64,000 bases of DNA from Bacteroidales bacterium (GCA_031263015.1 JAISGN010000007.1:313-64312); one strand, 5' to 3'; counted from the first letter of the stretch, positions 3,462 to 60,144 are shown. The notes: generated by a model not told the origin, from the sequence alone. Numbers and translations are program-made.

Positions 3462-3524
3462 CAAATTAAACAGCGTTTAAACAATAATGAAAGGCTGCTT
3501 AATTTGTTTAAGTCGCCTTTTTAT
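3462..3524. repeat. 21-bp-phased array (3 units) of the AAACAGCNTTT family
   Basis: The units are caaattaaacagcgtttaaac / aataatgaaaggctgcttaat / ttgtttaagtcgcctttttat. Confidence 0.6.
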
Positions 3525-3560
3525 TTTTCTGAAATTTGCTTGTATTTGAAAGAAATTATA

Positions 3561-3568
3561 TATCTTTG
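3561..3568 (+). promoter_or_regulatory. -7 box (TATCTTTG) upstream of the tandem hairpin RNA candidate
   Basis: This is an exact TAnnTTTG match, ~8 nt before the first hairpin arm. No ORF follows it. Confidence 0.45.
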
Positions 3569-3575
3569 CAGCCAG

Positions 3576-3710
3576 AAATAAGTTCTTAATGTGGGACTGC
3601 GAGGGTAGCAGTTGCAAGCCGTTAAAAACTTATTTTTTATATGAAATAAGTTCTTAGTAGAAGACCGATTAAGGGAATCGGCACCAATCGCTAAGAACTT
3701 ATTTCTTTTT
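3576..3710 (+). ncRNA. candidate small RNA: two tandem paralogous stem-loops, each ending in a U-run
   Basis: In hairpin 1, AAATAAGTT (3577-3585) pairs with AACTTATTT (3627-3635), followed by TTT. In hairpin 2, GAAATAAGTTCTTAG (3643-3657) pairs with CTAAGAACTTATTTC (3691-3705), followed by TTTTT. Each has an inner hairpin: ACTGC-gagggta-GCAGT and CCGATT-aaggg-AATCGG. Both inner loops contain AGGG. Confidence 0.35.
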
Positions 3711-3907
3711 TATATAGTTGCTTATATTCGGTGGCAATCCTTTACTTAACTTATCCAAATCACACATTCCATAAATACAGTAAAGCACTTTCCTTTGATG
3801 TCAAAGTTGTTTATTCATAGTAAATATTGCAGATATGTTATTTTGCAAATTCAAAATATATTCAAGTGTATTTGTAGCCATATTCTAAATTTTCTTATCT
3901 TTGCCCT

Positions 3908-4159
3908 ATGATTGGAACTATTATATCTGCACTTTTTATTATTTACTTCTCAATAAATATTTTGAGTTTTTGTGCAGGCGTTCTCAAAACACTTATTAAG
4001 ATTATAACTACTGTTATAATTGCTGTTGCATTTATTCCGGTAATGCCTTTTGTTGTTGCTTATAGATGTCGTAAAGAGAAACCAATCATATCAAAGTGGC
4101 TTTTTGTACTATGGAGTCTTTTTTATATATTGCTCGCCGCAATTATTATCTTTCCATAA
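3908..4159 (+). CDS. small hypothetical membrane protein (83 aa, ~3 TM helices)
   Basis: The ORF is hydrophobic. A TATCTTTG box at 3896-3903 ends only 5 nt before the ATG, so the ORF would have to be translated leaderless. That lowers confidence. Confidence 0.3.
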   Translation: MIGTIISALFIIYFSINILSFCAGVLKTLIKIITTVIIAVAFIPVMPFVVAYRCRKEKPIISKWLFVLWSLFYILLAAIIIFP

Positions 4160-4380
4160 CCTTTCATTGCTGCTGCTTTTCTTTCAAGCAATTCAAGTTC
4201 TTAAAGTCTCATTGCCTACTGAATATCCGACAAATCTTCCGTGTTTTGAATGTTCATATACTTACGCAACCGTGCGTTGGCTATTAGTAATCCGTCAGTT
4301 TGGATTTCAAAGATACAATTTTTTTGCAAACAATTCACAATTGCCTCCTGTGGGATAAGTAGTATGGTGAGGGGATAGGA

Positions 4381-4677
4381 TTATGCTTTTTTATAGCGTA
4401 TGACCCAACGGCTGTTCTCAAACTGATGCGCGCCATCTACCATATTTATCTTGCCATCTCTACCATCTCTTAACATTTGCCTGAAATTAAATCCCGGCTG
4501 AGGAGGAACTTGTTCTAATACACCTTTTGATAATAATATATCGGCGCATTCGTCTGCTGACATTTTTTCAATGCAATTTTCACGCATATAATCTTGCAAT
4601 ACATTAGAAACCTCTTGGACTTGGTCATTATTAAACTTACTGTCTTCCATATAATTTTCTGTTTTAAATTTATGCAA
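4381..4677 (-). CDS. hypothetical protein (98 aa)
   Basis: This is a complete ORF with non-repetitive, plausibly globular sequence (…PGFNFRQMLRDGRDGKINMVDGAHQFENSRWVIRYKKA). No family was recognised. Confidence 0.4.
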   Translation of the reverse strand: MHKFKTENYMEDSKFNNDQVQEVSNVLQDYMRENCIEKMSADECADILLSKGVLEQVPPQPGFNFRQMLRDGRDGKINMVDGAHQFENSRWVIRYKKA

Positions 4678-4819
4678 AGATACAAGAAATTATTAAATAC
4701 AATGATTTACTTCGTATTAAGAACAAAGCAATCAAAATATACCTGTCCAATGTTGCCGCTATATAGGTCGGCGAGACTGCCGTAGCCATTTGTCTTTCAA
4801 AGAACAAGGATGCAATTAA

Positions 4820-4910
4820 CCAAAGGCTGTTTTGTGCTGATGAAACAGCCTTTCATTTTTCTAAAACGGCGTTTCGTTAGCACGAAACAGCGTTTTAGTT
4901 TTGGCAAAGG
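4820..4910. repeat. 21-bp-phased array (about 4 units), AAACAGCCTTT family, directly downstream of ftsW
   Basis: AAAGGCTGTTT (4822-4832) and AAACAGCCTTT (4843-4853) form an 11-bp stem followed by cattttt. The following units are gcctttcatttttctaaaacg / gcgtttcgttagcacgaaaca / gcgttttagttttggcaaagg. Confidence 0.85.
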
Positions 4911-4937
4911 GGATAGTGTCGGCAGGAAACCCGTTTT

Positions 4938-6227
4938 CTAATCGGCAGTTGCTGGCTTTGTGTTCGTGGAGTCGGCAGTCTCCGTGTCATTATTATCGGA
5001 AACGGCATCCTTTTCCTTTTTGTCGTAAGTTGTAGATACATTCAGCACAACGCCTAATGCCATGCAGGCAAAAAGTATTGATGTGCCGCCTTTGGAAACA
5101 AAAGGTAAAGTTTGCCCTGTTACAGGTATCAAGCCGGTTGAAACTCCTATATGAATCAGAGCCTGAATGGTGAGAATCAAACCTATGGAGTAACACAGCA
5201 TACTGCCGAAGAAGCCCGCCGAGTGCCTTGCTATATAAAAACAACGATAAATGAGTATCATAAACAGCAATATCACAGAAATAGCCCCAAGCAATCCTGT
5301 TTCCTCTGTTATTACCATAAACACAAAGTCATTCTGTGCCTCTCTTTGGTTATGAGCCATAACGGAATTGCCTACTCCTAAGCCGATAATGCCTGCATTG
5401 CCTATTGCTAATTTTGCTTGATGCCGCTGTTGAGTTGGGTCGTCGGTTTTGGTAGCACTTGTCCGCGAGGCAGCAGTAGTGAATCTGCCGAAAGGAGGTA
5501 CTTTGTCAATGCCGGGAACGGTTTTTGCCAAAAGCATAATGCATATAAATAAGACGGCTGTTGCTGAAAAAACGATAGCAAGGTATCTCTTTGGTATGCC
5601 TGCAATGAATAACACAATGGTAGTTGTGGTGAATATGATGATAGCCGTTGATAGATTGCTCGCTCCTATTGCTACACACATAATACAAACGGGTATCATA
5701 ATTTTTTTGAAGGTTTCCCAGAGTTTTAGCTTGTCTTTGAATACTGTTGTCTTCCATGCCATCCACATAATAGTAATAAATTTTGCCATTTCGGCAGGTT
5801 GGAAGCTGAATCCTGCAGGTAAAGGAATCCATCGCCCCATCTTTAAGGATTTAAACATATTCGGGTCAGGGTATGCGTACTTATAATACATTCCGGTAGC
5901 AAATGCCCCGACAACAAGGATGAAAGATAGAATCATAAGAGCATTGAGGAAATGAGGAAGCAGACTGTATTTGAAATTTTGGAAGACATAAGCCACTACA
6001 ATCCCAAATGACAACATAATAATATGCTTAACGAAATATGCAGTGGGCGTTTGTGCATTTTTATCAAAATAAACTTCGCTCGCAACGGCACTGAATACTT
6101 CCACGGCAGAGATGATGGATAATAATATGAGGAGTATCCATATTGCTTTGTCTCCTCGGAGTTTTATGTTGGCTGGTTTGAATTTTGTAGCGAGCGAATG
6201 TTTCATAGCAAAGATGTTAGATGGCAT
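4938..6227 (-). CDS. ftsW: FtsW/RodA (SEDS) family cell-division protein
   Basis: This is a 429-aa polytopic membrane protein with SEDS-like motifs (…GLIPVTGQTLPFVSKGGTS…). It sits after murD' in the dcw cluster. An alternative start lies at 6206. Confidence 0.9.
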   Translation of the reverse strand: MPSNIFAMKHSLATKFKPANIKLRGDKAIWILLILLSIISAVEVFSAVASEVYFDKNAQTPTAYFVKHIIMLSFGIVVAYVFQNFKYSLLPHFLNALMILSFILVVGAFATGMYYKYAYPDPNMFKSLKMGRWIPLPAGFSFQPAEMAKFITIMWMAWKTTVFKDKLKLWETFKKIMIPVCIMCVAIGASNLSTAIIIFTTTTIVLFIAGIPKRYLAIVFSATAVLFICIMLLAKTVPGIDKVPPFGRFTTAASRTSATKTDDPTQQRHQAKLAIGNAGIIGLGVGNSVMAHNQREAQNDFVFMVITEETGLLGAISVILLFMILIYRCFYIARHSAGFFGSMLCYSIGLILTIQALIHIGVSTGLIPVTGQTLPFVSKGGTSILFACMALGVVLNVSTTYDKKEKDAVSDNNDTETADSTNTKPATAD

Positions 6228-6750
6228 TTATAGCAAGGAAATAATCTCTTGAGTTTTGCTTTGTTTCATTGTTATTACCGCAAGCGGGAGAGTAAAGCAC
6301 GGCTTCTCCTGCCGATGCGTAATTATATGCTATTTCAACGGCTTGGTATATGTTTTCAACACTGATTATTGTTTTTACAATGCCTTCAAACGGACGTATC
6401 AAGTCGGAATTTCCGATGTTTATAAGGATTCTGACTTTTTCTTTGGCTACCTGTTGCAATGAATAGAGCGATTGTTGCAACATATTGCCGCCTGCTATCC
6501 ATATAACGGACTGATTGATGCCTGTAAGTGAATACCACGTCATATTTGGTTTGGTTGATTGCGAGTCATCAAGGAAATTTACGCCTTTAATAGTGGCTAT
6601 TTCTTTGAAATGGTTAGTGTTTCTGTCGTTTCCAACGAAAATTTTTGATAGTGCTTGTTTGCGTGCATAAAATATCTCGTTAAAATTGTTCTTAACTTGA
6701 TTGTTTTGTAATGAAACCGCACCTGCCTGTTTGAAAATCTCTGTATTCAT
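6217..6750 (-). CDS. murD: MurD C-terminal-domain-only homolog (truncated, divergent UDP-N-acetylmuramoylalanine--D-glutamate ligase)
   Basis: The ORF is 177 aa, whereas full-length MurD is ~440 aa. HFKEIATIKGVNFLDDSQSTK aligns to the HRLE..GV.FINDSKATN region. AVLYSPACGNNNE aligns to the LLSPACASFD region. The N-terminal and central ATP-binding domains are absent, because mraY ends only 21 nt upstream. Confidence 0.6.
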   Translation of the reverse strand: MNTEIFKQAGAVSLQNNQVKNNFNEIFYARKQALSKIFVGNDRNTNHFKEIATIKGVNFLDDSQSTKPNMTWYSLTGINQSVIWIAGGNMLQQSLYSLQQVAKEKVRILINIGNSDLIRPFEGIVKTIISVENIYQAVEIAYNYASAGEAVLYSPACGNNNETKQNSRDYFLAINAI

Positions 6751-6771
6751 ATATATTTCTTTGTTTCTTTA

Positions 6772-8025
6772 TTATCTTAATTTAAGTGTTACAATTGTTA
6801 ATACCGATAAGATTATGCTTACCAAAAGGAATCTCATTACAATCTTCGGTTCTGCAAATCCTTTTTTTTGAAAATGATGATGAAGAGGGGACATAAGGAA
6901 TATTCTTTTGCCCTGTCCATATCTTTTTTTTGTGTATTTGAAATAACTCACCTGCATAATCACGGAGATGTTCTCAATAATGAATACTCCGCAAAGAATA
7001 GGCAATAGAAACTCTTTTCGGATTAAAATAGCAAAGACAGCAATGATTCCTCCTAAGGCTAACGAACCCGTATCTCCCATAAAGACTTGAGCAGGGTATG
7101 TGTTGTACCAAAGGAAGCCTGTGGTAGCTCCTACAAATGCAGCAATAAATATGGTTAATTCGCCACTGTTAGGAATATACATTATATTTAAGTAGTGAGC
7201 AAAGATAATGTTGCCCGATACCCATGAGAGAATTGCCAATGTGCTGCCTATAATTGCCGAAGTGCCTGTTGCCAATCCGTCTATTCCGTCAGTGAGGTTA
7301 GCCCCATTTGATATTGCCGTTATGATAAATATTACTATCGGGATGAATATTAACCAAGCCCAATCTTTATAATTCTTCCCTGTCCATTTTACGAGACTTG
7401 TGTAGTCAAATTCTTGGTTTTTGACAAAAGGAATAGTGGTTTTTGTGGAGCGTTTGGCTTGCTGTTCAAAATCTGCTTTGGCTTTTTCGTATTTTGTTTG
7501 ACTTTGTATGTTGTGTTGTTGAACGTATTGGTCAATTTCAACTTTTTCTTTGATTGTTATGGATGGATTAAAATATATAAGCCCTCCTACAACTATTCCG
7601 AGAAGAACCTGTCCTATGATTTTAACTTTGCCCGAAAGTCCTCGCTTGTCTTTGCGGAATACTTTTATGTAATCATCTGCAAAGCCGAGAAGTCCCAGCC
7701 AAATGGTGGTGAGCAACATAATTATTATGTAGATGTTAAATATTTTAGCAAAGAGTATTGTTGGAATAATGATAGAGGCAAGAATTATTAACCCTCCCAT
7801 TGTCGGCGTGCCTTCTTTTGCTTTTTGCCCTTCTAAGCCTAATTCCCGCACAGTTTCACCTACTTGCTTTTTTTTGAGATAGTTGATGATGTTCTTGCCG
7901 AAAACAATAGAGATTAGTAAAGAGCAGATTATAGCCATTGCGGCTCTGAACGAAATGTATTGAAAAACTCCCGTTAAAGGAACATCGTATTCTCTGTATA
8001 ACCAATCAAATAAATAATATAACAT
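6772..8025 (-). CDS. mraY: phospho-N-acetylmuramoyl-pentapeptide transferase
   Basis: This is a 417-aa polytopic protein with MraY motifs ([43 protein letters not shown]). Confidence 0.95.
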
Positions 8026-8040
8026 ATTCTATCTGTTTTT

Positions 8041-9483
8041 TTAACAATATTTCAAAACTTCCTCTTTGTCGTCAAAATGATGTTTAATGCCATCTATCTC
8101 TTGATATGTCTCATGTCCTTTGCCTGCAATGACTACAATGTCTTTTGATGTTGCTATATGGCATGCGGTTTTTATTGCAGAAGCTCTGTCTTGAATTACC
8201 AGTACATTGTCGTCATTAGTAATGCCTGCGAGCATATCGGAAATAATATCTTCAGGTTTTTCTTTACGAGGATTGTCGGTTGTGATAATAACAGTGTCGC
8301 TTCCCTTGTCGGCGATATCTGCCATCTCAGGACGCTTGGTTTTATCTCTATTGCCTCCGCACCCTATAACTGTTATTATTTTAGAATCATTATTCACAAT
8401 ATCCCTAATTGTTGATAGTACGTTTGCAAGTGCGTCGGGAGTATGAGCGTAATCAACAATGGCTGTGCTTCCGTTACGTAAGTGGAATGTGTTAAATCGT
8501 CCGTCAGGGCTGTCTAATTTGCTTATACCTATTAATGTTTCTTCTTTGCTAATACCACAGATAACAGATGTAGCGAAAACCGCTAATATATTATATGCAT
8601 TAAATCTGCCGACAAGTTTAGTGGATACATCTATTCCGTTTATGTTTAGCAATAGTCCTTCTAAAGTATTTTCTATTATTGATGCTTTGAATGAGGCAAT
8701 CTGGTTTATGGTATAGGTGAATATTTTGGCTTTTGTGTTTTGAGCCATAAACAATCCATTCTTATCATCTATATTTATGAGGCAGAATGCAGTCGCAGGT
8801 AATAAATCAAAGAAAGTCTTTTTTGCATCCCTATATGCGGCAAAAGTTTTATGGTAATCTAAGTGGTCGTGCGTTATGTTGCTGAAGATGCCTCCGAAAA
8901 AATTAATACCCGATATGCGATGTTGTACTATTGCATGTGAAGATACCTCCATAAAGACGTATTGGCAATCTGCTTCTACCATTTGTGCAAATAGATATTG
9001 CAATTCTATGGCATCAGGTGTTGTGTGAGAGGCAGGCAATACATTATAATTGATACGATTTATTATAGTGGAAATAAGCCCTACTTTATACCCTAAAGAC
9101 ATAAAGAGGTTATATAATAATGTTACTGTTGTAGTTTTTCCATTTGTGCCTGTTATTCCGATAACTTTTAATTTGGATGTAGGCTCATCATAAAAAGCAG
9201 AAGCAATTATTCCTAAAGCAAGGTTACTGTCTTTAACTTGGATATAAGTAATATCGGTATGAATATTAAGAGGTATATTTTCGCAAACAATAACAACTGC
9301 ACCACCATTGATACTTTGCTCAATATATTTGTGCCCATCTAATTCAGTGCCGTTCTGTGCAATGAAAATACTATCAGGTTTGACTTTGCGAGAATCAAAA
9401 CAAATGGCTGAGATTTGTTTTGATTGTACTCCGACAATGTTTAGTATTTCTATATTCTTTATTAAGTCAGATAGTGTTTTCAT
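8041..9483 (-). CDS. murE: UDP-N-acetylmuramoyl-L-alanyl-D-glutamate--2,6-diaminopimelate ligase
   Basis: The ORF is 480 aa. It carries the Mur ligase P-loop GITGTNGKTT, plus DYAHTPDAL and GCGGNRDKTKRP motifs, and sits in the dcw position. Confidence 0.93.
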   Translation of the reverse strand: MKTLSDLIKNIEILNIVGVQSKQISAICFDSRKVKPDSIFIAQNGTELDGHKYIEQSINGGAVVIVCENIPLNIHTDITYIQVKDSNLALGIIASAFYDEPTSKLKVIGITGTNGKTTTVTLLYNLFMSLGYKVGLISTIINRINYNVLPASHTTPDAIELQYLFAQMVEADCQYVFMEVSSHAIVQHRISGINFFGGIFSNITHDHLDYHKTFAAYRDAKKTFFDLLPATAFCLINIDDKNGLFMAQNTKAKIFTYTINQIASFKASIIENTLEGLLLNINGIDVSTKLVGRFNAYNILAVFATSVICGISKEETLIGISKLDSPDGRFNTFHLRNGSTAIVDYAHTPDALANVLSTIRDIVNNDSKIITVIGCGGNRDKTKRPEMADIADKGSDTVIITTDNPRKEKPEDIISDMLAGITNDDNVLVIQDRASAIKTACHIATSKDIVVIAGKGHETYQEIDGIKHHFDDKEEVLKYC

Positions 9484-9488
9484 AATAT

Positions 9489-11552
9489 TTATTTTAATGT
9501 GAGTTTAATTGTGTTTGATGTATTCGTCATGATATTTGTACCTGCACTTACCGATTGGGAAACAACTTTGCCGTATCCATTAATAGAACTTTTTAGACCT
9601 AATGCAGACAATATATATACAGCATCCTTTGCACTAAGTCCGATAAGATTAGGCATAATATTGTTCGTTCTACTTTGCTCAATTATACGTTGGTTATTTT
9701 GAGCGGAGTTATTAATACCGAATTTTATGTTTCTAATTATGGTATTTGAATCGGTTCTTACTTTGGTCGTGTCCAAGAAAGTTTCTTTAGTTCCCATGAC
9801 TCTATCAGCCAAATCTTTGAAAACAGGTGCTGCCACTTCTCCTCCATGCTTTGTTGTGGCATTTATTACGACTATACATGAGTATTTAGGAGCATCGGCT
9901 GGGAAATAACCAACAAAAGAAGCGTGATTAAGTTTTGTTTTTATATCTTCCGATGTGCCTGTCTTGCCCGCAACACCATACGAAGATTTGGAAACTTTTG
10001 CAGTGCCGTGTTCCACAACATCTTTCAAAACACTTTGCAAAATATCTAATGTCTCCTTCTTGCAAATATTGATTCGTAGAGTATCAGGGCTAAGAGCAAT
10101 GGCTTGTCTTTTGTTATCAACAGTACGAATGATGTGAGACACAAACATAGGCTTTATCATAATACCATTATTAGCAATAGCATTATAAAAAGTCAGCATT
10201 TGCAATGGAGTTATCATAGATACATAGCCATAACTTAGCCGCAAAATATCATCAACGCTTGCAGCATTTTTGCTTATATAAGCAACAGGTTCTTCCGAAA
10301 CGAAAGAATTTCCATTGCTGCTAAAAATAAATTTATAATCCAGATGTAAAGAAGAATCAAACCAAAAATATTGTTTAAGATCCTTTATAAATTGCTTTTT
10401 GTTTTTGCTTTCAACATAATTTTTATAAACCAAATAACTAATACCCACGTTAGAAGAATATTGAATGGCTTCTCTAAATGTGAAAGAGCCTATTTTCCCT
10501 CCGCCGTCATCAACAATCTCTTTAATAGTGTTAGGGAAACGCCTTCTGCCCTTAGGAACAATATCGGTTATTTTTGCTAAGCCTTTATCAAGAAGCACCA
10601 TTGCAGAAACGGTCTTAAAAGTAGAGCCAGGCTCCATACGTTGTGTTAAAGCCATATTCTCTATCTCTCTGAAATTCCCAAACGAATCTTTTTTCAAATT
10701 AGAGATGGCACGTACATACCCTGAATCTACATCCATTAATACTACACAGCCCGAAGAGGCATCATTTTCCCGCAAGCATTTCTCCAAAGAATAATCAGCC
10801 AATTCCTGCAAGCCCACATCAATAGTTGTGATTATATCGGCGGGTTCGCTATTCCCCATTTGTTTATAATATAGACCTCTTGCTATTTTTTGAGCCGGTA
10901 CGCTGTCGGCTTGTCTTAGAATAGTTGAATCGTAATATCCAGAGATACCATCATACATACCGATGTTGCTAATCAATATCCCGAGTGTGCGTCTTGCCAT
11001 CTTCATTTTGTCAGCATAAGGATATGTACGGATATAATGTTTTTTAGCAGAGACCGCACCTCCTATGAATTTCTTCATATAGGGAATAGTTTCTATTCTA
11101 TCGTATTGAGAAATACTTACGTCTTTTGCAATCAGTGTAGAGCGATTCCCTTTACGGCGTTGCTCTTTAAAATATTTCAAATATTCATTTTTGGTTTTTT
11201 GCGGTAAGATTTTTGCGAGGCTATCACAAACCGTATGTATCCAACCTTTATATATGGAATCCGGAATAACATAGGCGTTTTTGTTTTTTCCTAAATCAAT
11301 TCGCATTTCGTATCTTAATACATCGGTGGCAAATAATAATGTGTCATTATTTGCTTCATCCACCGAAAGAATGTTGCCTCGTTTGATAGGAATTTGAGCA
11401 TATTTCAGGAATCTGGCTTTATATTCCTTTTCATACTTGTCGTGCTGCCAAAGTTGTAAATAAAGAATTTGTCCGATGATTATTATACAAGGGACAAACA
11501 GCAAGATATACACCAAACTGCTTCTTTGCTTTATGCCTTTGTTATCATTCAT
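9489..11552 (-). CDS. ftsI: penicillin-binding protein (FtsI-type transpeptidase) with a C-terminal PASTA domain
   Basis: The ORF is 687 aa with an N-terminal TM helix. It has the transpeptidase motifs STFK (PGSTFKTVS), SSN and KTGT. The C-terminal IMPNLIGLSAKDAVYILSALGLK… is PASTA-like. Confidence 0.9.
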   Translation of the reverse strand: MNDNKGIKQRSSLVYILLFVPCIIIIGQILYLQLWQHDKYEKEYKARFLKYAQIPIKRGNILSVDEANNDTLLFATDVLRYEMRIDLGKNKNAYVIPDSIYKGWIHTVCDSLAKILPQKTKNEYLKYFKEQRRKGNRSTLIAKDVSISQYDRIETIPYMKKFIGGAVSAKKHYIRTYPYADKMKMARRTLGILISNIGMYDGISGYYDSTILRQADSVPAQKIARGLYYKQMGNSEPADIITTIDVGLQELADYSLEKCLRENDASSGCVVLMDVDSGYVRAISNLKKDSFGNFREIENMALTQRMEPGSTFKTVSAMVLLDKGLAKITDIVPKGRRRFPNTIKEIVDDGGGKIGSFTFREAIQYSSNVGISYLVYKNYVESKNKKQFIKDLKQYFWFDSSLHLDYKFIFSSNGNSFVSEEPVAYISKNAASVDDILRLSYGYVSMITPLQMLTFYNAIANNGIMIKPMFVSHIIRTVDNKRQAIALSPDTLRINICKKETLDILQSVLKDVVEHGTAKVSKSSYGVAGKTGTSEDIKTKLNHASFVGYFPADAPKYSCIVVINATTKHGGEVAAPVFKDLADRVMGTKETFLDTTKVRTDSNTIIRNIKFGINNSAQNNQRIIEQSRTNNIMPNLIGLSAKDAVYILSALGLKSSINGYGKVVSQSVSAGTNIMTNTSNTIKLTLK

Positions 11553-11883
11553 GCTCCTCTTTCTTTATTATAATGCGTTGTTTTATGGGTTCTGTCGGTA
11601 TTTTCACGCCTGTTGCCTGAAGTTTATCTGCTACTTCAATCATAAGGGTTGTTTGTTGCCACAGACTCCTTTGCTCGCTTGCTTTGTCTTGCAATCTTTC
11701 TATTTTGGCAGTAGTAATTCCTATTTGTTTAATAGTGCTTTCTGTCCTGTATCTGATAGCTATGTAAAATGTAAAGAAGAATGCAAACAAAAAAACAAAA
11801 GATAGATTTTTTAACACCAAATCCGATGTTAGAAAACCGCCGTCAAACATATCTTTTAATTTTATTTTGCCTCTATTTTTCAT
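11545..11883 (-). CDS. ftsL: FtsL-like cell-division protein
   Basis: The ORF is 112 aa with a single TM helix followed by a coiled segment. It lies between rsmH and ftsI and overlaps the ftsI start by 8 nt. Confidence 0.7.
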   Translation of the reverse strand: MKNRGKIKLKDMFDGGFLTSDLVLKNLSFVFLFAFFFTFYIAIRYRTESTIKQIGITTAKIERLQDKASEQRSLWQQTTLMIEVADKLQATGVKIPTEPIKQRIIIKKEEHE

Positions 11884-11909
11884 TCTTTCTTTACTATATT
11901 ATATTGTGT

Positions 11910-12815: not shown

Positions 12816-12818
12816 ATT

Positions 12819-52398: not shown

Positions 52399-53406
52399 TT
52401 ACCAAGACCACCCTCTTTCTTTTAACCATTGCTTTGCCTTTTCATTTCCAAGCTGTGCGGCTTTCTGATAAAATTCTATTGCCTGTTCGTAACCACCTTT
52501 GCCTTCATAAGCCATTCCCATATCGTAGTATGCGTCCGCAGCATCGGGCTCTAATTCTATTACTTTCTTATAACATTCAATTGCTTTATCATATTGTTCG
52601 CCCCAATTCTTATAAGAAATTCCTATATTGAAGTATGCGTCCGCATAATCGGGCTCTAATTCTATTGCTTTCTTATAACATTCTATGGCTTTCTCATATT
52701 GTTCGTTCCAAACAACATAAGCATTTCCCATATTGTAGTATGCATCCGCAGCATCGGGCTCTAATTCTATTACTTTTTTATAACATTCTATTGCTTTCTC
52801 ATATTGTCCGTCCCAATCGTGATAAGCAAGTCCCATATTGTTGTATGCGTCCGCCAAATCGGGCTTTAATTCAATTGCCTTCTCATAATATTCAATTGCT
52901 TTCTCATATTGTTCGTTCCAAGTACGATAAACGTTTCCCATATTGTAGTATGCGTCCGCATAATCAGGCTTATATTTTAGTGCTTCGTTGTAACATTCTA
53001 TCGCTTTCTCATATTGTCCGTCCGAACCACTATAAGCATCTCCCATATTCTTGTATGCGTATGCGTTATATGGCTTTATGGCAATAACCTTTTCATAATA
53101 ACCAATGGCGGCTTCAAAATCCCCTTTTATTTGAGCAGCATACGCTTTTATAAGGTATTCTTCGGCAGTTTTAGGATTTGTTATGATTTCACCAAAACTT
53201 CTTACTTCTTCCTTTAATTCAGGCGTTGCGTCTTTTGGTTGCACCTTCCGTATCTCTTCTATTAGGTTTTCATACTTTTGAGTATCTTCTTGTTCCTTTT
53301 CTTTCTCTCTTCGTTTGTCTTTTTTCCTCCAATACCAAGTTATAACAAAAGTAAGCACTCCTATAGCAAGACCTCCAAACAAGAAATTCAAAACTTGTTG
53401 CATCAT
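52399..53406 (-). CDS. membrane-anchored TPR repeat protein (335 aa)
   Basis: It has the N-terminal TM helix FLFGGLAIGVLTFVITWYW, followed by ~7 tandem 35-aa TPR-like units (DAYxNMGxAYxxWxxQYEKAIECYKKxIELxPD). A TAAGTTTG box lies at 53427-53434 on the minus strand. Confidence 0.85.
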   Translation of the reverse strand: MMQQVLNFLFGGLAIGVLTFVITWYWRKKDKRREKEKEQEDTQKYENLIEEIRKVQPKDATPELKEEVRSFGEIITNPKTAEEYLIKAYAAQIKGDFEAAIGYYEKVIAIKPYNAYAYKNMGDAYSGSDGQYEKAIECYNEALKYKPDYADAYYNMGNVYRTWNEQYEKAIEYYEKAIELKPDLADAYNNMGLAYHDWDGQYEKAIECYKKVIELEPDAADAYYNMGNAYVVWNEQYEKAIECYKKAIELEPDYADAYFNIGISYKNWGEQYDKAIECYKKVIELEPDAADAYYDMGMAYEGKGGYEQAIEFYQKAAQLGNEKAKQWLKERGWSW

Positions 53407-53765: not shown

Positions 53766-53877
53766 AATCAAATTACAGAATTCTATAATCAAGTTTCAGA
53801 ACTCTGTAATCAAATTACAGAATTTTGTAATCAAGTTTCGTGATTCCGAAGTCAAATAATGTCCGTGCGACACGCAC
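53766..53877. repeat. 21-bp-phased array (alternating A/B units, giving a 42-bp super-repeat) ending in a reverse-orientation hairpin head
   Basis: The units are aatcaaattacagaattctat / aatcaagtttcagaactctgt / aatcaaattacagaattttgt / aatcaagtttcgtgattccga / agtcaaataatgtccgtgcga. The head GTGCGACACGCAC lies at 53865-53877. Confidence 0.85.
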
Positions 53878-53951
53878 TCTCACGTTGATGGCATCAAATT
53901 CCTTGAAAATATGGTCAAAAAACACTCAAATAAACGCAAATTATGCAATGA

Positions 53952-54056
53952 ATGGAATCAAATAATATAAAAATGAAGTCAAAAATCACCCGAATAAAAG
54001 CAGATTATAAAAGCGATAAAAGCAAATAATATAAAAATATTGTCAATTCGCCACGC
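53952..54056. repeat. A-rich 21-bp-phased units shared with the 55871-55912 element
   Basis: The units are atggaatcaaataatataaaa / atgaagtcaaaaatcacccga / ataaaagcagattataaaagc / gataaaagcaaataatataaa / aatattgtcaattcgccacgc. Confidence 0.6.
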
Positions 54057-54091
54057 ACCGAAACCTAATTTTTGCGGCACATTCCTTACCA

Positions 54092-55657
54092 CTAATATCC
54101 GTTTTCTTCTAACAATTGCTGTATATACTCATCTCCGAGTTCTTTGGCTTTCTTCAGGTAATCTTCTGCCTTCTTTTCATCTCCTATTCCCATATAATAA
54201 AGTCTCATAAGGATGTATGTACCTATATAATTGGGATTTACTTCTATTGCTTTTTGCCAACATTCAATTGCTTTCTCATGTTGTCCGTCCCAATCCATAT
54301 AAACACTTCCCATAAAGCAGTATGCTTCCGCATAATCGGGCTTTAATTCTATCGCCTGCTCAAAACATTTTATTGCTTTCTTATATTCCTGATTATTAAA
54401 TGCTATATAACCATCCAAAAACCACTCTTCGGCAACTTGATAGTTTGTATCAGATTCGTTGAAGTCAGGTTTTATTTCCTCTACTATATTATATTGTTCA
54501 TTCAAGGTCTCATAAGCCAGTTTCATATTGTAGTATGCGTCCGCATAATTAGAGTTTAATTCGCTGGCTTTCTTATAACATTCTATCGCTTTCTCATATT
54601 GTTCGTTCCAATCAGCATAAGCGACTCCCATATTGAAGTATGCTTCCGCATAATCGGGCTTTAATTCTATGGCTTTCTGATAACATTCTATCGCTTTCTC
54701 GTAATCATTATTATTAAATGCTTTTAAACCTTTCAAATACCATCCTTCGGCAAGTTGAGAGTTAGTATCAGATTCTTTATGGTCAGTTGTTGTTGCCCCA
54801 GATATCCTAATTTGTCCGGTCAAAGCCTTATAAGCAAGTTTCTTATTTTGGTGTGCATCCGCAAAATCGGGCTTTAATTTTATTGCTTTCTCAAAATATT
54901 CTATCGCTTTCTTATATTGTCCGTTCCAATTGCAATAAGCGACTCCCATATTATTGTATGCTACTGCATTATCGGGCTTTAATTCTATTGCTTTCTCATA
55001 ACATTCTATAGCCTTCTCATATTTTCCGTTCCAATTCTGATAAGCAACGCCCATATTGACGTATGCGTCCGCTAAATCGGGCTTATATTCTATTGCTTTC
55101 TTATAATATTCTACGGCTTTCTTATATTGTCCCTTCCATTTACTATAAACCAGTCCCATATTGAAGTATGCTTCCGCATCATCGGGATTTAATTCTATGG
55201 ATTTCTTATAACATTCTATTGCTTTCTCATATTGTCCGTTCCAATCAGCATAAGCAAGTCCCATATCGTTATACGCTTCCGCCAAATCGGGCTTTAATTC
55301 TATTGCCTTCTGATAACATTCTATCGCTTTCTTATATTGTCCTTTCCAAGCATAATAAGCATTTCCCATATTGCCGTATGCATCTGCATAATTGGGCTTT
55401 AATTCTACGGCTTTCTGATAACATTCTATTGCTTTCTTATATTCCTTATTATTAAATGCTATAGAACCATCTAAAAACCATTCTTCGGCAGTTTGAGAGC
55501 TGGTATCAGGTTCGTTGAGGTTTGATATTATTTCCCCGTTGTCAGAAAATATTTTGTCAAAACCAAGCATTGTGTTTGTGTTCCCACATTGTGCTGCAAC
55601 AAAAGCAAAGAGGGAGAAAACCAAAGCAAACATTCTAATAATATTGTGAAATTTCAT
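54092..55657 (-). CDS. secreted TPR repeat protein (521 aa), paralog of 52399..53406
   Basis: The signal peptide is MKFHNIIRMFALVFSLFAFVAAQ. It has three blocks, each opening with ESDTN.Q.AE.W.L.G..AFNN.EYKKAIECYQKA. These are followed by the same 35-aa TPR-like units. A TAACTTTG box lies at 55697-55704 on the minus strand. Confidence 0.85.
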   Translation of the reverse strand: MKFHNIIRMFALVFSLFAFVAAQCGNTNTMLGFDKIFSDNGEIISNLNEPDTSSQTAEEWFLDGSIAFNNKEYKKAIECYQKAVELKPNYADAYGNMGNAYYAWKGQYKKAIECYQKAIELKPDLAEAYNDMGLAYADWNGQYEKAIECYKKSIELNPDDAEAYFNMGLVYSKWKGQYKKAVEYYKKAIEYKPDLADAYVNMGVAYQNWNGKYEKAIECYEKAIELKPDNAVAYNNMGVAYCNWNGQYKKAIEYFEKAIKLKPDFADAHQNKKLAYKALTGQIRISGATTTDHKESDTNSQLAEGWYLKGLKAFNNNDYEKAIECYQKAIELKPDYAEAYFNMGVAYADWNEQYEKAIECYKKASELNSNYADAYYNMKLAYETLNEQYNIVEEIKPDFNESDTNYQVAEEWFLDGYIAFNNQEYKKAIKCFEQAIELKPDYAEAYCFMGSVYMDWDGQHEKAIECWQKAIEVNPNYIGTYILMRLYYMGIGDEKKAEDYLKKAKELGDEYIQQLLEENGY

Positions 55658-55769
55658 AACTATTTATTTTTATTTAGACATTATTTAATTAGGTTGCAAA
55701 GTTATAAAAAATAATTAGAATATCAACAACGCTTACAAGAATTTTACGAAACGGCATTGTATTTTTACA

Positions 55770-55926
55770 AAAGGCTGTTTGTGCGTGTCGCACTGACATT
55801 ACTTTTTAACAAAACGACGTTTTAGAAAAACGAAAGGCTGTTTTATTTTGATTAAAGGCTGTTTTATTTTGATTAAAGCAAATAATATAAAGATGAAGTC
55901 AAAAAAAATGTCCGTGCGACACGCAC
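55770..55926. mobile_element. MITE-like composite: inverted GTGCGTGTCGCAC(T/G)GACATT termini flanking five 21-bp units
   Basis: The left end is GTGCGTGTCGCACTGACATT (55781-55800). The right end is AATGTCCGTGCGACACGCAC (55907-55926), which matches the left end's reverse complement at 19 of 20 positions. The interior units are aacaaaacgacgttttagaaa / aacgaaaggctgttttatttt / gattaaaggctgttttatttt / gattaaagcaaataatataaa / gatgaagtcaaaaaaaatgtc. Confidence 0.6.
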
Positions 55927-55935
55927 TGGGGGCGG

Positions 55936-57860: not shown

Positions 57861-57868
57861 AAAATACC

Positions 57869-58873
57869 CTAAATTTGTTTTATTAATTCGTTATACAAAA
57901 TGTTTTTATCAATTGGCGACACGCCAACCTTCTCACATACCAATCCTCCAGCAAGATTGCTTATTCTTGCAATGTCTGCCGCTTTTATTTTCAACGCCAA
58001 GCACAATGTAGCGACACTTATCACCGTGTCTCCCGCACCTGATACGTCCGCAATCTGCCTTAAATGTGCTTTAATATGGTAGGGAACTCTCATTTGCTCG
58101 CTATAATCCATCATAAACACACCTTTATCGCTCAAAGTGATGAATACTTTCTCTATATTGTGCTTTTTGTGCAATATATCGGCGGCTTGCATCAGTATAT
58201 CCTCATTTACCTTGCTTATATCTTCAAAATTCAGGTTCAAGCCCTCTTTTAATTCTTTCAGATTGGGCTTAAACAAGGTTATATTATTATAATGATTGAA
58301 GTTTCGCTTCTTTGGGTCGGTTGAAGTAGGAATATTCATTTGCTTTGCTTTGTCTGCAACCTTTTTTATGACATTTTTGGTTATCGTTCCCTTGTCATAA
58401 TCCTGAAAAACGATAGCATCTATGCGTTTTGCAGCCAATATGTCAAATATTCGCTTGATAAAATCTCTCTCTTCTTCCTTTGAAATCTCTCTGTCGGTCT
58501 CTTCATCAACACGAAGCAACTGCGAAGAGCCGCTTAGAAACCTTGTTTTGGATGTTGTTTGCCTTTGTGTTGATGTTATCATACCTTGTGTGGATAGATG
58601 CTCGTTTCGCATTAATGAAAGCAAGATTTCTCCGCTTATATCATTGCCAATAACCGAACAAAGTATAGGTTCGGCACCCATAGATGCGATATTCAAAGCG
58701 ACATTCGCCGCTCCGCCGAGCCGATTCTCCTTTTTAACAACGGCACACACAGGAACAGGAGCCTCAGGTGAGATTCTATTAACCTGACCCCACATATAAG
58801 AATCTACCATTACGTCTCCGATGATTAGAATGTTGAGTTTAGAAAATCGTTTGAATATTTCCTTGTAATCCAT
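57869..58873 (-). CDS. PfkB-family sugar kinase, RfaE/HldE domain I-like (D-glycero-beta-D-manno-heptose-7-phosphate kinase)
   Basis: The ORF is 334 aa. IIGDVMVDSYMWGQVNRISPEAPVPV, RLGGAANVALN and DVSGAGDTV motifs are present. Confidence 0.85.
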   Translation of the reverse strand: MDYKEIFKRFSKLNILIIGDVMVDSYMWGQVNRISPEAPVPVCAVVKKENRLGGAANVALNIASMGAEPILCSVIGNDISGEILLSLMRNEHLSTQGMITSTQRQTTSKTRFLSGSSQLLRVDEETDREISKEEERDFIKRIFDILAAKRIDAIVFQDYDKGTITKNVIKKVADKAKQMNIPTSTDPKKRNFNHYNNITLFKPNLKELKEGLNLNFEDISKVNEDILMQAADILHKKHNIEKVFITLSDKGVFMMDYSEQMRVPYHIKAHLRQIADVSGAGDTVISVATLCLALKIKAADIARISNLAGGLVCEKVGVSPIDKNILYNELIKQI

Positions 58874-58875
58874 GC

Positions 58876-59889
58876 TTATTGTTTTGTTATCTCACCTCGT
58901 AAGTTGGTGGTTAATAATTGTTTTATTTTTTCGTTATCTCTTTCGGTCGCTATCAAAAGCATTAATTTCGCAAGAGCAGCCTCTGTCGTTATGTCGTCTC
59001 CCGATATTACGCCCATACTCATTAGTTGTCGGCTTGTTTCATAATGTCCCATCACAACTTTGCCTGCTTTGCATTGCGTAACATTATAAACGATGATTCC
59101 CTTACTTATAGTATGTTGTATCAAATCAATAAACCATTTTTCAGTAGGGGCATTTCCGCTGCCGTAAGTCTCCAAAATCACTGCCCTTAGCCCGTCTGCC
59201 GCAAGTACTGCCTGCAAATATTTTTCTTTTAAGGCAGGATGGATTTTTATTATCACAATATCATCGCACAACTGCTTGTAAAATTTTGTTCTTCCTTGCG
59301 ATTGCGGGCATATAAGGTGGTCTTTGTAAGTTATATTGATGCCTACTTTCGCCAAAGAGGGATAATTGCCCGAGTAAAACGCCTCAAAATACTCGGAATT
59401 AATCTTTGTCGTGCGGTTTCCCCTGTAAAGTTTGTTGTCAAAGAAGATACAAACTTCGGGAATGACGACTTCATTATTTGAAGCAATCTCTATGGCTGAT
59501 ATAATGTTCTCTCGTCCGTCGGTTCTAATCATTCCGAGCGGCAATTGGCTGCCTGTGAGTATTATTGGCTTGGAAAGATTTTCTATCATAAAGGAAAGCG
59601 CCGATGCTGTGTAGCTCATGGTGTCCGTTCCGTGCAAAACGACAAATCCGTCATAGTTATCGTAATTGCATTCAATGATTCCGACCAGCCTTATCCAGAA
59701 ATCAATATTTACATTGGAGGAATCTATCACTGTTTCCAACGTTAGCGTTTCTATGATGCAGTCTAATTTTTTCAAAGTAGGGATTACCTCGCATATTTGT
59801 TCCAAATTAAATGGTCGTAATGCCCCAGTAACATTATCTTGCACCATTCCAATAGTTCCACCTGTGTAAATGACTAAAATTTTCTTCAT
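58876..59889 (-). CDS. ansA: type I L-asparaginase
   Basis: The start is set at MKKILVIYTGGTIGM (the catalytic TGGTIG motif), and HGTDTM is present. A TAATTTTG box at 59910-59917 on the minus strand supports this start over 59931. Confidence 0.9.
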   Translation of the reverse strand: MKKILVIYTGGTIGMVQDNVTGALRPFNLEQICEVIPTLKKLDCIIETLTLETVIDSSNVNIDFWIRLVGIIECNYDNYDGFVVLHGTDTMSYTASALSFMIENLSKPIILTGSQLPLGMIRTDGRENIISAIEIASNNEVVIPEVCIFFDNKLYRGNRTTKINSEYFEAFYSGNYPSLAKVGINITYKDHLICPQSQGRTKFYKQLCDDIVIIKIHPALKEKYLQAVLAADGLRAVILETYGSGNAPTEKWFIDLIQHTISKGIIVYNVTQCKAGKVVMGHYETSRQLMSMGVISGDDITTEAALAKLMLLIATERDNEKIKQLLTTNLRGEITKQ

Positions 59890-60039
59890 AAGGAGGCAAT
59901 TAAACGCTGCAAAATTACAACTTTTTTTCAACTTGTCCTTTTATTCCTTCGTTTGCTTGCCGTCCGACTGCCTTCTGTGCGGATAAAAGCCCGTATCCGC
60001 CCGACATTTCTTAACTCTGATTTCCTCTTGTCTTGCAAT

Positions 60040-60144
60040 GTTTTGACAAAAGGCTGTTTCATTTTTACCAAACAAAGTTTCATTCGCACCAAAGGCTGTT
60101 TTAGAAAAATGAAACAGCCTTTGATTTTGTGCAAAGGCGAAATT
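60040..60144. repeat. 21-bp-phased array (5 units), AAAGGCTGTTT/AAACAGCCTTT family
   Basis: The units are gttttgacaaaaggctgtttc / atttttaccaaacaaagtttc / attcgcaccaaaggctgtttt / agaaaaatgaaacagcctttg / attttgtgcaaaggcgaaatt. The array lies between the divergent ansA and fucosidase promoters. Confidence 0.9.

Follow-up and report, generated by a model that had tools for sequence, protein, structure and literature searches.

Most of this termite-gut-type Bacteroidales genome carries a DNA-level pattern in which an A-run, five or six G/C-rich bases, a T-run and about 10 freer bases repeat every 21 bases, and it is in the intergenic 21-base arrays that this pattern is most regular. The arrays, together with a conserved gene pattern in the same register, point to an undescribed way to package or read the chromosome. 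The reading we favour, though the chances that it is right are evenly balanced, is that of a nucleoid-wide 21-base code, to which the arrays contribute strong, phased sites for same-face docking or DNA shape. All counts for the window refer to the 64 kb of source genome analysed.

Each array unit comprises an 11-nt core, AAACAGC(C/G)TTT, and a 10-nt linker; the core is near-invariant across units, and the linkers between abutting units are themselves recurrent. The window contains 30 exact matches to AAACRGCSTTT on both strands (0.27 +/- 0.57 in shuffles, maximum 3), and 29 of them are intergenic, corresponding to 3.27 per kb of intergenic sequence vs 0.018 per kb of CDS, a 180-fold density excess. 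A preliminary description of this DNA had counted roughly 40 cores, all outside credible CDS; the number matches the 40 phased units obtained when up to 2 mismatches are allowed, but one exact core, at 22176, lies within a 1673-aa Glug-motif gene. The 21-bp phase also persisted under autocorrelation, with intergenic base identity of 0.355, 0.342 and 0.331 at lags 21, 42 and 63 over a baseline of ~0.28. Consistently, core pairs (<=2 mismatches, distances <=130) were found at 21 (21 pairs), 42 (13), 63 (9), 84 (3), 105 (2) and 126 (3) bases, and only five at distances that are not multiples of 21. True core arrays, defined as 3 or more phased cores, are the nine core and composite arrays below, with the one at 55770 counted to 55864. 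The at least 15 loci originally proposed divide into core arrays in about ten spacers, three or four degenerate pairs and three other 21-base families. On the chromosome, an array occurs roughly every 4-6 kb. An independent assembly (Logan SRR14710920, contig L201) was 100% identical across window positions 17138-30736. The features are as follows, with (+) and (-) giving unit orientation and strand stated where a feature has one.

2476 to 2567, plus strand: direct array of period 21 and unrelated sequence, 4.4 copies of GGAAGAAAAGTTCTCGTCCGT, fold z -0.6, matching the different-sequence array earlier placed at 2456-2581.
3468 to 3521: degenerate locus with cores at 3468 and 3490, out of 21-base phase because their spacing is 22 bases.
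4822 to 4895: core array, units - + + + (cores 4822, 4843, 4864, 4885), in a tandem spacer downstream of an ftsW-like gene (4938-6227, minus strand); DNA fold -23.1 kcal/mol, z -6.0; both coding flanks in register.
13526 to 13578: core array, units - - +, in the divergent spacer between mraZ (minus strand) and a radical-SAM gene (plus strand).
17112 to 17185: core array, units - + + +, downstream of feoB; fold z -5.9; flanks at phase +1.
22428 to 22480: core array, units - + -, with variant cores AAAGGGCGTTT / AAACGCCCTTT, in a convergent spacer.
24595 to 24647: degenerate dyad, ACCTTGTTT ... AAACAAGGTTT, 42 bases apart, in a spacer with lag-21 identity of 0.39.
25437 to 25489: core array, units - + +, in a divergent spacer; left flank in register.
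28848 to 28900: two degenerate cores at a spacing of 42 bases, with ftsK on one side and a tRNA gene on the other; left coding flank strongly in register (7/17, p = 7e-6).
30702 to 30838: composite array in a divergent spacer; core (-), accessory module GTGCGTGTCGCACTGAC (30713-30729), cores - - + +; both neighbouring genes in register.
36944 to 37080: composite array in a convergent spacer; core (-), module 36955-36971, cores - + + +; fold z -6.8; its second unit corresponds, in inverted form, to the second unit at 30786, and its register extends >300 bases into gene 37114-38679.
41854 to 41932, plus strand: direct array of a diverged unit, 3.8 copies of AAATGAAATCAGGTTTGGTTG (also given as AAATCAGGTTT), in a divergent spacer; no hairpin potential, fold z +1.2.
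49848 to 49921: two cores (- +) at a distance of 63 bases, separated by non-core sequence.
53766 to 54056: different 21-base family, 3.3 copies of AATCAAATTACAGAATTCTGT, then ~200 bases where the sole element still in phase is a TCAAA(T/A) motif, spaced by 21-21.3 bases; accessory modules lie inverted within the feature (53861-53877 and 54042-54058).
55770 to 55926: composite array; core (-), module 55781-55797, degenerate unit 55812, cores - - (55833, 55854); the module recurs, inverted, at 55910-55926.
60049 to 60122: core array in a divergent spacer, units -, degenerate + at 60070, -, +; fold z -4.1; right flank in register.
13640 to 63064: coding domain with 21-base (10.5-base W/S) synonymous-site periodicity.

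Within each array the units form a dyad: between one and three (-) units come first, and between one and three (+) units follow (-+++, --+, -++, ---++, --+++ and so on), with one switch per array and 9 (-) to (+) junctions vs 1 (+) to (-). As initially noted, both orientations occur in single arrays and inverted neighbouring units can pair, here in stems of 11-14 bp. It is improbable, in our estimation, that the arrays work through RNA, having been multiplied by slippage and serving as intrinsic terminators in both directions, as hairpins that stabilise transcripts, or as insulators. Core arrays do fold into long hairpins (z -4 to -6.8), T-rich linkers follow many (+) cores, the 22428 array in its convergent spacer is a textbook terminator (14-bp stem and T-rich tail), and the lone dyad AAAGGCTGTTT-N10-AAACAGCCTTT recurs as a solitary hairpin in many unrelated metagenomic contigs. 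However, that terminator is the only strong classic one among the arrays, accompanied by a weaker 7-pair site at 13522-13540 that overlaps the array there, and terminator-like sites are at chance level overall (17 vs 16.6 expected). Arrays are equally common in divergent spacers (4/6 divergent, 2/4 convergent and 4/15 tandem), direct-only 21-base arrays are unstructured, and in an Rfam 15 scan only a tRNA passed, the sub-threshold hits being hairpin look-alikes of eukaryotic miRNA precursors. A role as RNA would also leave unexplained the strand-symmetric gene periodicity described below and its continuity across the divergent promoters at 30702. The common property of the arrays is the period rather than the hairpin, since direct-only arrays of unrelated sequence keep the 21-base period yet do not fold. 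These results uphold the earlier view that promoters and simple terminators are insufficient, and leave terminator, structured-RNA or insulator functions a side role at most.

Inside genes, CDS identity peaked at lags 21 to 126 (0.288-0.300 vs 0.27) in 44 of 49 genes, while window positions 1-13300, which include the dcw operon, were nearly without coding periodicity. The lag-21 excess is concentrated at third codon positions (0.328 vs about 0.26, with only ~+0.01 at positions 1 and 2), and compared with synonymous-codon shuffles it reached z = 25 for all genes and z = 10.3 for feoB alone. In CDS, the W indicator has its highest spectral peak at 10.5 bases, above the codon peak; the A/T vs G/C repeat is one helical turn and falls within the 10-11.5 bases that define genome-wide helical-period periodicity, in coding and non-coding DNA and beyond what the proteins impose. 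AAA to TTT spacing in CDS peaks at lags 8-9, 29-30 and 50-51, and the AAA-anchored profile (A at 0-2, S at 3-8, T at 9-11) shows a correlation with the array matrix (r = 0.47 to 0.52) that is confined to shift 0 or -1. At lag 21, C to G and G to C couplings were raised as much as C to C and G to G, and A to A and T to T were raised but A to T was not. The gene periodicity therefore behaves as a compositional signal, not as exact copying.

The two patterns are locked in phase. With an ORF-based gene map, AAA/TTT runs in CDS 60-300 bases from arrays shared the register of the arrays (p = 7e-6, 2e-9 and 7e-3 for the distance bins); beyond 300 bases the match of CDS runs was not significant. In-register runs were enriched on both sides of arrays (p = 1e-11 and 8e-4), and the best phase was 0 or +1 in 13 of 22 flanks. 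The register is also conserved between species: between feoB orthologues with 23-31% protein divergence, cross-correlation gives z = 6.4, 6.1 and 5.7 at codon lags of +/-7, 14 and 21, compared to about 0 for Prevotella pairs as control.

Arrays and coding periodicity could together be a functionless mutational by-product, if copying or repair at a 21-base offset (out-of-register slippage or conversion) made the spacer arrays and imprinted synonymous sites. Several features fit such a process, which we nonetheless regard as quite unlikely: arrays of unrelated units have only the period in common, unit number varies among copies, and the imprint lies mostly at synonymous sites, in phase with neighbouring arrays, and fades within ~300 bases. 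However, copying does not predict the C to G coupling, and a 10.5-base W/S harmonic is present. Moreover, the periodicity persists >500 bases from any array, for example within feoB, the register is kept between the diverged orthologues, and genes have a common A-run / S / T-run profile in place of locus-specific patterns.

Several observations weigh against a nucleoid code, including arrays without coding periodicity in other organisms and the lack of a candidate binding protein in the window, both described below. Two more concern the arrays themselves. First, the near-invariant core and the >100-nt composite modules in three spacers represent sequence copied between loci, which a pure shape code does not require. 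Second, the 21-base arrays at 2476 and 53766 depart from the A-run / T-run layout. The arrays might instead be non-autonomous MITE or REP/BIME-type elements whose 21-base units bind a transposase encoded elsewhere, the coding periodicity being separate, an explanation that the near-invariant core favours but that we consider unlikely. Like MITEs, the arrays are dispersed copies without coding capacity in unrelated flanks; similarity between composite copies starts sharply at a core, a 118-nt module is common to three spacers, and the accessory module GTGCGTGTCGCACTGAC has six spacer copies and one 3-mismatch match inside feoB (7 vs 0.03 expected). Another organism has a related element in multiple copies whose flanks are unrelated, and both ends of contig L201 fall within arrays (17112-17185 and 30702-30838). 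Multiple subterminal binding sites at some transposon ends provide an analogue for the reiterated units. A precedent in the same bacterial order is the BrickBuilt minisatellite MITE of Porphyromonas gingivalis, which occurs alongside other intergenic tandem repeats of 22, 23 and 41 nt (PMC4596501). BrickBuilt resembles the arrays in being strictly intergenic, dispersed and multi-copy, with imperfect tandem units of about two helical turns in variable copy number; its units, however, are 23 nt and direct only, whereas ours are 21 nt, of unrelated sequence and arranged as a dyad of inverted units, without leader or tail inverted repeats.

Several marks of mobility were missing. Shared flank k-mers were 3-6 nt, AT-rich and inconsistent (mean 4.3 nt; null 3.3, 95th percentile 5), giving no consistent target-site duplication. 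No IS5/BrickBuilt-type terminal repeat (GAGACCTTTGCA-type) adjoined any array; matches to it (<=2 mismatches) were confined to gene interiors far from arrays, and the only inverted termini of arrays are the cores themselves. Element ends are not fixed, because unit number varies. No transposase, integrase or Y1 (RAYT) gene was found among the ORFs of the 64-kb window, and viral contigs gave no hit. The in-register coding flanks on both sides of arrays are not what random insertion would give. REP/BIME elements bind nucleoid proteins in enterobacteria, and the arrays share with them high copy number, extragenic location, palindromic potential, regular clustering and both orientations. REP, BIME and REPIN elements are mobilised by RAYT transposases (PMC2817692, PMC3116915, PMC3733652), as was suggested for these arrays, a suggestion for which the window offered no support: the REP tag is lacking (GTAG in 0/40 and CGTC in 2/40 oriented units), the unit measures 21 nt, self-complementarity of the core AAACAGCCTTT is weak, and orientation switches once per array instead of alternating regularly. 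Overall, no described repeat family fits.

Returning to the nucleoid-wide code, phased nucleoid- or iteron-type sites on one DNA face were among the first proposals and are now the favoured option, given the same layout in genes, in register and conserved across species. The motif would be a two-fold-symmetric same-face docking site or, equivalently, a DNA-shape signal, and it may be read by a nucleoid-associated protein, or a filament of protein, that is abundant and binds in a 21-base register; all proteins encoded in the window are housekeeping ones, and none was a candidate for the binding protein. The code would reach its optimum in spacers because coding constraint is absent there, and the arrays could then serve as high-affinity positioning or nucleation sites. 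Arrays probably change by slippage through gain and loss of whole units, which would preserve the register. Units may also flip between inverted cores; flipping is seen in two alignments (A1 and A2), and unit number differs between copies. Ectopic recombination or a putative mobilising activity might copy or homogenise arrays across spacers.

Several known systems resemble parts of this picture. Nucleosome and archaeal-histone rotational positioning relies on a helical-period A/T vs G/C preference laid over coding sequence via synonymous sites, as here, but our host is bacterial, the 21-base repeat has alternating A- and T-runs with a coherence of ~300-400 bases, and the window yielded no histone-like protein. 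Plasmid iterons and partition-site arrays are ~20-22 bp repeats that assemble a protein superstructure, each unit of about two helical turns presenting a dimeric site on one DNA face for cooperative higher-order assembly. Their tandem units are of similar length to ours; however, they are single loci beside rep or par genes on plasmids, whereas these arrays are chromosomal, recurrent and embedded in a genome-wide periodicity. An iteron or partition-site assignment was rejected, as the genes flanking arrays are unrelated housekeeping genes with no adjacent rep/par or other binding-protein gene, and so was CRISPR, as units abut with recurrent 10-nt linkers and the window has no cas genes. Some prokaryotic chromosomes have A-tract periodicity at the helical period of 10-11 bases, for example 10.9 bases in Mycoplasma hyopneumoniae, for which a role in nucleoid structure has been proposed (PMC3431218; PMC7537859, PMC1242344). 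The pattern here is likewise genome-wide, near the helical repeat, in coding and non-coding DNA and regionally heterogeneous (the dcw region lacks the signal). Unlike that periodicity, A-runs and T-runs alternate here, so that each has an exact 21.0-base period and W/S one of 10.5; the signal is placed at synonymous sites with a register conserved between species, and its phase is locked to that of discrete tandem arrays built on a defined 11-mer. We found these properties in none of the cited periodicity papers (PMC3431218, PMC7537859, PMC1242344).

More broadly, and tentatively, this clade of uncultured Bacteroidales, and one or more further lineages of Bacteroidota, might hold much of the chromosome in a chromatin-like lattice of protein, positioned in a 21-base register, its positions encoded in DNA as A-run / G+C / T-run per two helical turns, maintained across species by synonymous-site selection and anchored by arrays of idealised sites. 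If true, the lattice would be a bacterial counterpart of the nucleosome-positioning code. The coding periodicity is specific to certain lineages: it is strong in the window and in L001, L003, L202, L174 and L156, the median over 160 loci is 0.0009, and the Prevotella controls lack it. Arrays can exist without the genome-wide code, since the UZAT01 organism has phased arrays with the same core but no coding periodicity (0.005), and Prevotellaceae have many 22-base arrays, again without it. No strain-level relative was found in the collections searched; the nearest relative is 77% identical in FeoB and differs in synteny, and the spacer 3' of feoB has an array in the window but none in L001. Relatives carry period-21/22 arrays of their own, and the AATCAAATTACAGAATTCTGT unit family is also present in L003 (2969-3013) and L202 (8364-8459 and 12814-12900).

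The core AAACRGCSTTT occurs 30 times on the two strands of the window, compared to 0.27 expected from shuffles. The possibility, raised in the preliminary description, that the core is equally frequent within genes does not hold: 29 of the 30 exact copies are intergenic, corresponding to 3.27 per kb versus 0.018 per kb in coding DNA. The sole exact core within coding sequence (22176-22186, in a 1673-aa Glug-motif gene) is solitary and out of phase with other cores. When up to two mismatches were allowed, core pairs within 130 bases of each other lay at distances of 21 (21 pairs), 42 (13), 63 (9), 84 (3), 105 (2) and 126 (3), with only five pairs at distances other than multiples of 21. The register is visible directly once the loci are written out in 21-base rows, and the 21-bp phase proposed earlier survived autocorrelation of base identity over 8.9 kb of intergenic DNA, which peaks at lags 21 (0.355), 42 (0.342) and 63 (0.331) above a baseline of ~0.28. 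The locus list of the preliminary description was retained in part, as ten spacers with two or more phased cores, the remainder being degenerate or belonging to other families:

Listed intergenic loci of the window
Nine spacers, at least three phased cores each
One spacer, two cores
3468/3490, cores 22 apart
24595 and 28848, degenerate pairs
41854, direct array of a diverged unit
53766 and 2476, different period-21 families

Aligned in the same orientation, 40 phased units gave the consensus caTtaaaAcg-AAACAGCCTTT-cgTTataatc. Ten of the 11 core positions are kept in 34-40 of the 40 units, nine of them in 36-40, while the eighth is variable (C in 28, G in 11). The layout is that of a dyad, (-)n units followed by (+)m units, with nine (-)->(+) orientation junctions against one (+)->(-). 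Because of this dyad arrangement, the core arrays fold as single strands into long hairpins (z -4 to -6.8). Three spacers (30692, 36934 and 55760) have in common a composite of ~120 nt that starts abruptly at a core and contains an accessory module, GTGCGTGTCGCACTGAC. The module, GTGCGTGTCGCAC(T/G)GAC, has seven matches at up to three mismatches compared to 0.03 expected; one is within feoB (15340-15356, 3 mismatches) and six are in spacers:

Accessory-module copies in spacers
30713-30729, + strand
36955-36971, + strand
55781-55797, + strand
53861-53877, - strand
54042-54058, - strand
55910-55926, - strand

The module is itself a small hairpin and goes with some arrays; in the spacer 55658-55935 the array is bracketed by two inverted copies of it. 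Units also flip: the second unit of the 30692 array has its inverted counterpart in the second unit of the 36934 array, and in a related element of another organism, found on the UZAT01 contigs, the middle unit and both linkers are exactly reverse-complemented between copies.

The hairpins raise the possibility of a terminator or other hairpin role at the RNA level, and the array at 22428, in a convergent spacer, does look like a classic terminator. It is the only one that does, and terminator-like sites in the window are at chance level (17 versus 16.6 expected). Arrays are present in 4 of the 6 divergent spacers, 2 of the 4 convergent ones and 4 of the 15 tandem ones, supporting the earlier statement that simple terminators do not explain them. 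Folding potential is absent from the direct-only 21-base arrays 41854 and 2476, and we give the RNA-level reading lower weight; the period, not the hairpin, is the property common to all arrays. The Rfam search of the units suggested in the preliminary description, run at gathering and permissive thresholds, returned no relevant family, and viral contigs gave no match. A metagenome scan with the dyad pattern, which is also a generic terminator shape, returned mostly lone hairpins from unrelated taxa and was informative only for the UZAT01 contigs and one further contig, L088. The UG27 hairpin arrays of the Minerva preprint were considered and are unrelated, being prophage RT-associated ncRNAs. 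No known family thus fits the arrays, and the case in which they would match a described repeat of known function did not arise.

The 21-base period is also present inside genes. In coding DNA, analysed without the two TPR genes, base identity peaks at lags 21, 42, 63, 84, 105 and 126 (0.300 down to 0.288, versus 0.27 at other multiples of 3), the excess is positive in 44 of 49 genes, and the signal decays between lags of ~170 and 600 bases. Third codon positions carry the excess (0.328 versus ~0.26), with a gain of just ~0.01 at positions 1 and 2. When synonymous codons were permuted gene by gene, the periodicity statistic fell from 0.0635 to 0.0028 +/- 0.0024 (z = 25), and feoB alone gave z = 10.3. 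Protein heptad repeats as a cause are ruled out by the codon-position split and the synonymous shuffles. The periodicity is regional: in 1-kb windows the excess is ~0 over the dcw operon and its neighbours (1-13300) and nearly always +0.01 to +0.10 from 13 kb on (13600-63000). The two TPR genes, in tandem at 52399-53406 and 54092-55657, consist of repeats 105 bases long (5 x 21), within which there is a sub-period of 21 bases.

One rival holds that a neutral mutational process acting at lag 21 generated both arrays and periodicity. At third positions, A->A and T->T are raised at lag 21 and A->T is not, while C->G and G->C are raised to the same extent as C->C and G->G. Because of this coupling, the coding signal is compositional or structural rather than exact copying, which is disfavoured, and the neutral process receives lower weight. 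A global watermark or assembly artefact was also rejected. The signal has no global mod-21 phase and therefore is not a watermark, it is found in MAGs and contigs of several separate records, and an independent Logan assembly is identical across 13.6 kb, with both contig ends inside arrays.

The layout of the coding signal resembles that of the arrays. The top line in the A/T indicator spectrum of coding DNA is at 10.5 bases, exceeding the codon line, with aliases at 4.2 and 7.0. A->T coupling is maximal where the lag equals 9 (mod 21) and T->A coupling where it equals 12, and AAA->TTT counts peak at lags 8-9, 29-30 and 50-51. One to three periods downstream of a genic AAA, the profile reads A at 0-2, G/C at 3-8 and T at 9-11, then ~10 bases under weak constraint; its correlation with the array matrix is r = 0.47 at shift 0 and 0.52 at shift -1, compared to -0.29 to +0.15 at every other shift. 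The array core is an idealised form of this genome-wide motif.

Genes and arrays also share a register. AAA/TTT runs in coding sequence fall at the phase of the nearby array more often than expected at distances of 60-120 bases (14 versus 3.4, p = 7e-6), 120-200 bases (26 versus 6.5, p = 2e-9) and 200-300 bases (17 versus 8.8, p = 7e-3), with no excess past 300 bases. These are exact-phase binomial tests, which replaced a Rayleigh first-harmonic test insensitive to the spiky phase histogram. Eleven of 12 arrays contribute, enrichment is found on the left (37 versus 10.2) and right (22 versus 10.3), 13 of 22 flanks have a best-fitting phase of 0 or +1, and at four arrays, including that in the divergent spacer 30702, both flanks are in register. 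Such a shared register agrees with either arrays that grow in place in whole-unit steps or selection that keeps the register continuous. It bears on the view of the arrays as a mobile, MITE- or REP-like element: copying between loci is evident from the near-invariant core and the composite modules in common, yet random insertion would not put flanking genes in array register. REP hallmarks are absent, as are those of MITEs, the arrays having neither target-site duplications nor terminal repeats of an IS type, that of BrickBuilt included, and the genes of the 64-kb window include no transposase, integrase or Y1 transposase. We accordingly give the mobile element lower weight.

The register extends between species. 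When feoB orthologues are aligned, their third-position S/W patterns show cross-correlation at +/-7, 14 and 21 codons, with z of 6.4 (window and its closest relative, L001), 6.1 (window and a second relative, L003), 5.7 (L001 and L003) and 3.2 (window and L002), compared to -1.6 to 0.7 in three Prevotella/Xylanibacter FeoB pairs, where it is absent. Since the lagged sites differ, site-wise ancestry cannot account for this cross-correlation. At aligned codons with differing amino acids, S/W class still correlates between window and L001 (r = 0.20 versus ~0.04 in controls), which argues for maintenance by selection. feoB is itself periodic in L001 (z 6.8) and L003 (z 6.1), and not in comparison locus L004 or four Prevotella/Xylanibacter/Segatella genomes. 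Across 160 loci the periodicity statistic has a median of 0.0009; the outliers are the window, L202/L203, L001, L003, L174 and L156, the last two as strong as the window (0.055 and 0.053).

These analyses demonstrate that the arrays form a dispersed family, that a 21/10.5-base code of the same layout runs genome-wide at synonymous sites, that the two are phase-locked, that the register holds across species and that units flip. We infer that an abundant nucleoid protein or filament docks at the motif, or recognises its DNA shape, at two-fold-symmetric sites on one face of the helix, and that the arrays position it strongly. Caveats to this docking-site reading are the copying between loci and the occurrence of arrays in the UZAT01 organism and Prevotellaceae, whose genes lack the periodicity. 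No recognisable nucleoid protein is encoded among the window's genes, no candidate was found among its unannotated ORFs, and no binding protein for the motif was found in the 64 kb of genome seen. There is a substantial possibility that the phenomenon reflects an undescribed form of bacterial chromatin. Bacterial helical-period signals have been known for decades with no accepted cause, and dispersed intergenic repeats are commonly classed as selfish DNA. In this genome they are physically coupled: an 11-mer array sets the register, the silent sites of neighbouring genes follow it and orthologues keep it. A vague statistical property thereby becomes a concrete, testable system, with the array as DNA probe and a predicted 21-base footprint, and the protein behind it could be sought in a few periodic and non-periodic sister genomes; Md513_bin63, EPI_MAG_00054, UW_MP_BACTE7_1 and Prevotella count as the weakly periodic or non-periodic ones. 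Should a binding protein exist, it would represent a bacterial chromatin organiser of a new type and synonymous sites in such genomes would hold a second, positional code, bearing on codon-usage models, gene design and the reading of selection there.

In the searchable literature, we found no exact 21-base A-/T-run alternation, no localisation of a helical-period signal to synonymous sites, no such register conserved between species and no phase-locked arrays of a defined 11-mer. The core sequence returned unrelated primer and miRNA matches only, and searches on 21/22-base Bacteroidetes intergenic repeats, Bacteroides REP/MITE and 21-base genomic periodicity returned only BrickBuilt and general periodicity papers. 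Some prokaryotic chromosomes are known to show a persistent helical-period signal, which is unexplained (PMC3431218, PMC7537859).

Intergenic arrays also occur in the relatives, with a period of 21 or 22 and unit sequences of their own:

Arrays in relatives
L001 3850-4120
L002 10477-10858
L003 7527-7724
L202 4390-4679, 16180-16251 and 20533-20665

The AATCAAATTACAGAAT family is common to the window, L003 and L202. In the L001 array, variant-core units AAACGCCACTT / AAGTGGCGTTT, perfectly complementary inside the array, lie on either side of five copies of a 22-base unit, GATGTACATC, found again at L001 20310-20449. L202 4390-4679 holds 12 copies of a 22-base unit (6.6 of the 44-base double unit) on the perfect palindrome GAAACCTAGGTTTC and runs straight into window core-type units, AAAACGGGCTTTCGTTAAAATGAAACGGCG. 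A 42-base array of 6.9 copies lies at 5988-6277 of L174 (ODXQ01000037.1; 49% GC, Bacteroidota-type promoter), and a 22-base GTTTC/GAAAC array at 1327-1414 of L156 (RHMF01001302.1). In 1.47 Mb of Prevotellaceae loci, TRF periods show sharp maxima, with 46 rows at 22 and 25 at 21, compared to 0-4 rows at 19, 20 and 23; in 0.8 Mb of mixed-taxon contigs, the frequency of period-22 rows per kb is about eight times lower. Tandem arrays of period 22, and also of 21, are in sharp excess in L009-L080 (Prevotellaceae and other Bacteroidales), and many of their units hold a 7-9-bp palindrome, such as TTGACGATTCACGAATCGTCAA (L045 2370) and ATTTCGTCCGCAGACGAAATTT (L071 9753). For P. gingivalis, tandem repeats of 22, 23 and 41 nt are reported from intergenic DNA, that of 23 nt lying within the BrickBuilt MITE (PMC4596501). 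The multi-copy UZAT01 element (contigs L087, L099, L108, L111, L117 and L157) spans ~170 nt of AAACGCTGTTT/AAACAGCGTTT units, which share one 21-base register with 2-4 copies of a second unit type, TCCCACCTTTTTAAATTTATG. Coding periodicity was looked for and not found in the UZAT01 organism, and is absent at lags 21, 33 and 66 in the L009-L080 genomes; arrays can therefore exist without the code.

The window is part of a 66-kb contig belonging to the MAG of an uncultured Bacteroidales bacterium and has the gene content of an ordinary chromosome (dcw cluster, feoB, ftsK, mreB, purH, frr, the two TPR genes and other housekeeping genes) with Bacteroidota-type promoters. Its nearest relatives are the MAGs Hs463_bin99, Md513_bin63 and Md513_bin13 (FeoB identity 65-77%), the Md513 series being gut MAGs of a termite, Mastotermes darwiniensis (PMC12483993); protein identity to the next relatives is 60-64% for DUF349 and 77% for FeoB, and the collections searched held no strain-level relative.

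Other repeats were observed in the window. At 53766-54056, 3.3 clean copies of AATCAAATTACAGAATTCTGT are followed by ~200 bases in which only TCAAA(T/A) remains phased, at 21-21.3 bases, the rest having diverged; this unit family recurs at L003 2969-3013 and L202 8364-8459 and 12814-12900, in relatives just 60-65% identical in FeoB or DUF349 protein. The regions upstream of the TPR genes are partly duplicated (53854-53878 resembles 55903-55927, and 53956-53985 resembles 55876-55905). Within a 1.5-kb stretch without a long ORF (2347-3907), a long inverted repeat on GATTGCGGGTCAAGCCCGCAATGACG at 2880-2990 is regarded as a plain hairpin, because its sole Rfam match is a sub-threshold eukaryotic miRNA precursor. 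Lastly, two adjoining hairpin-like elements at 3575-3715, bounded by AAATAAGTTCTTA and TAAGAACTTATTT, lie directly downstream of a Bacteroidota-type promoter box, ATATCTTTGCA, and may be small RNAs.
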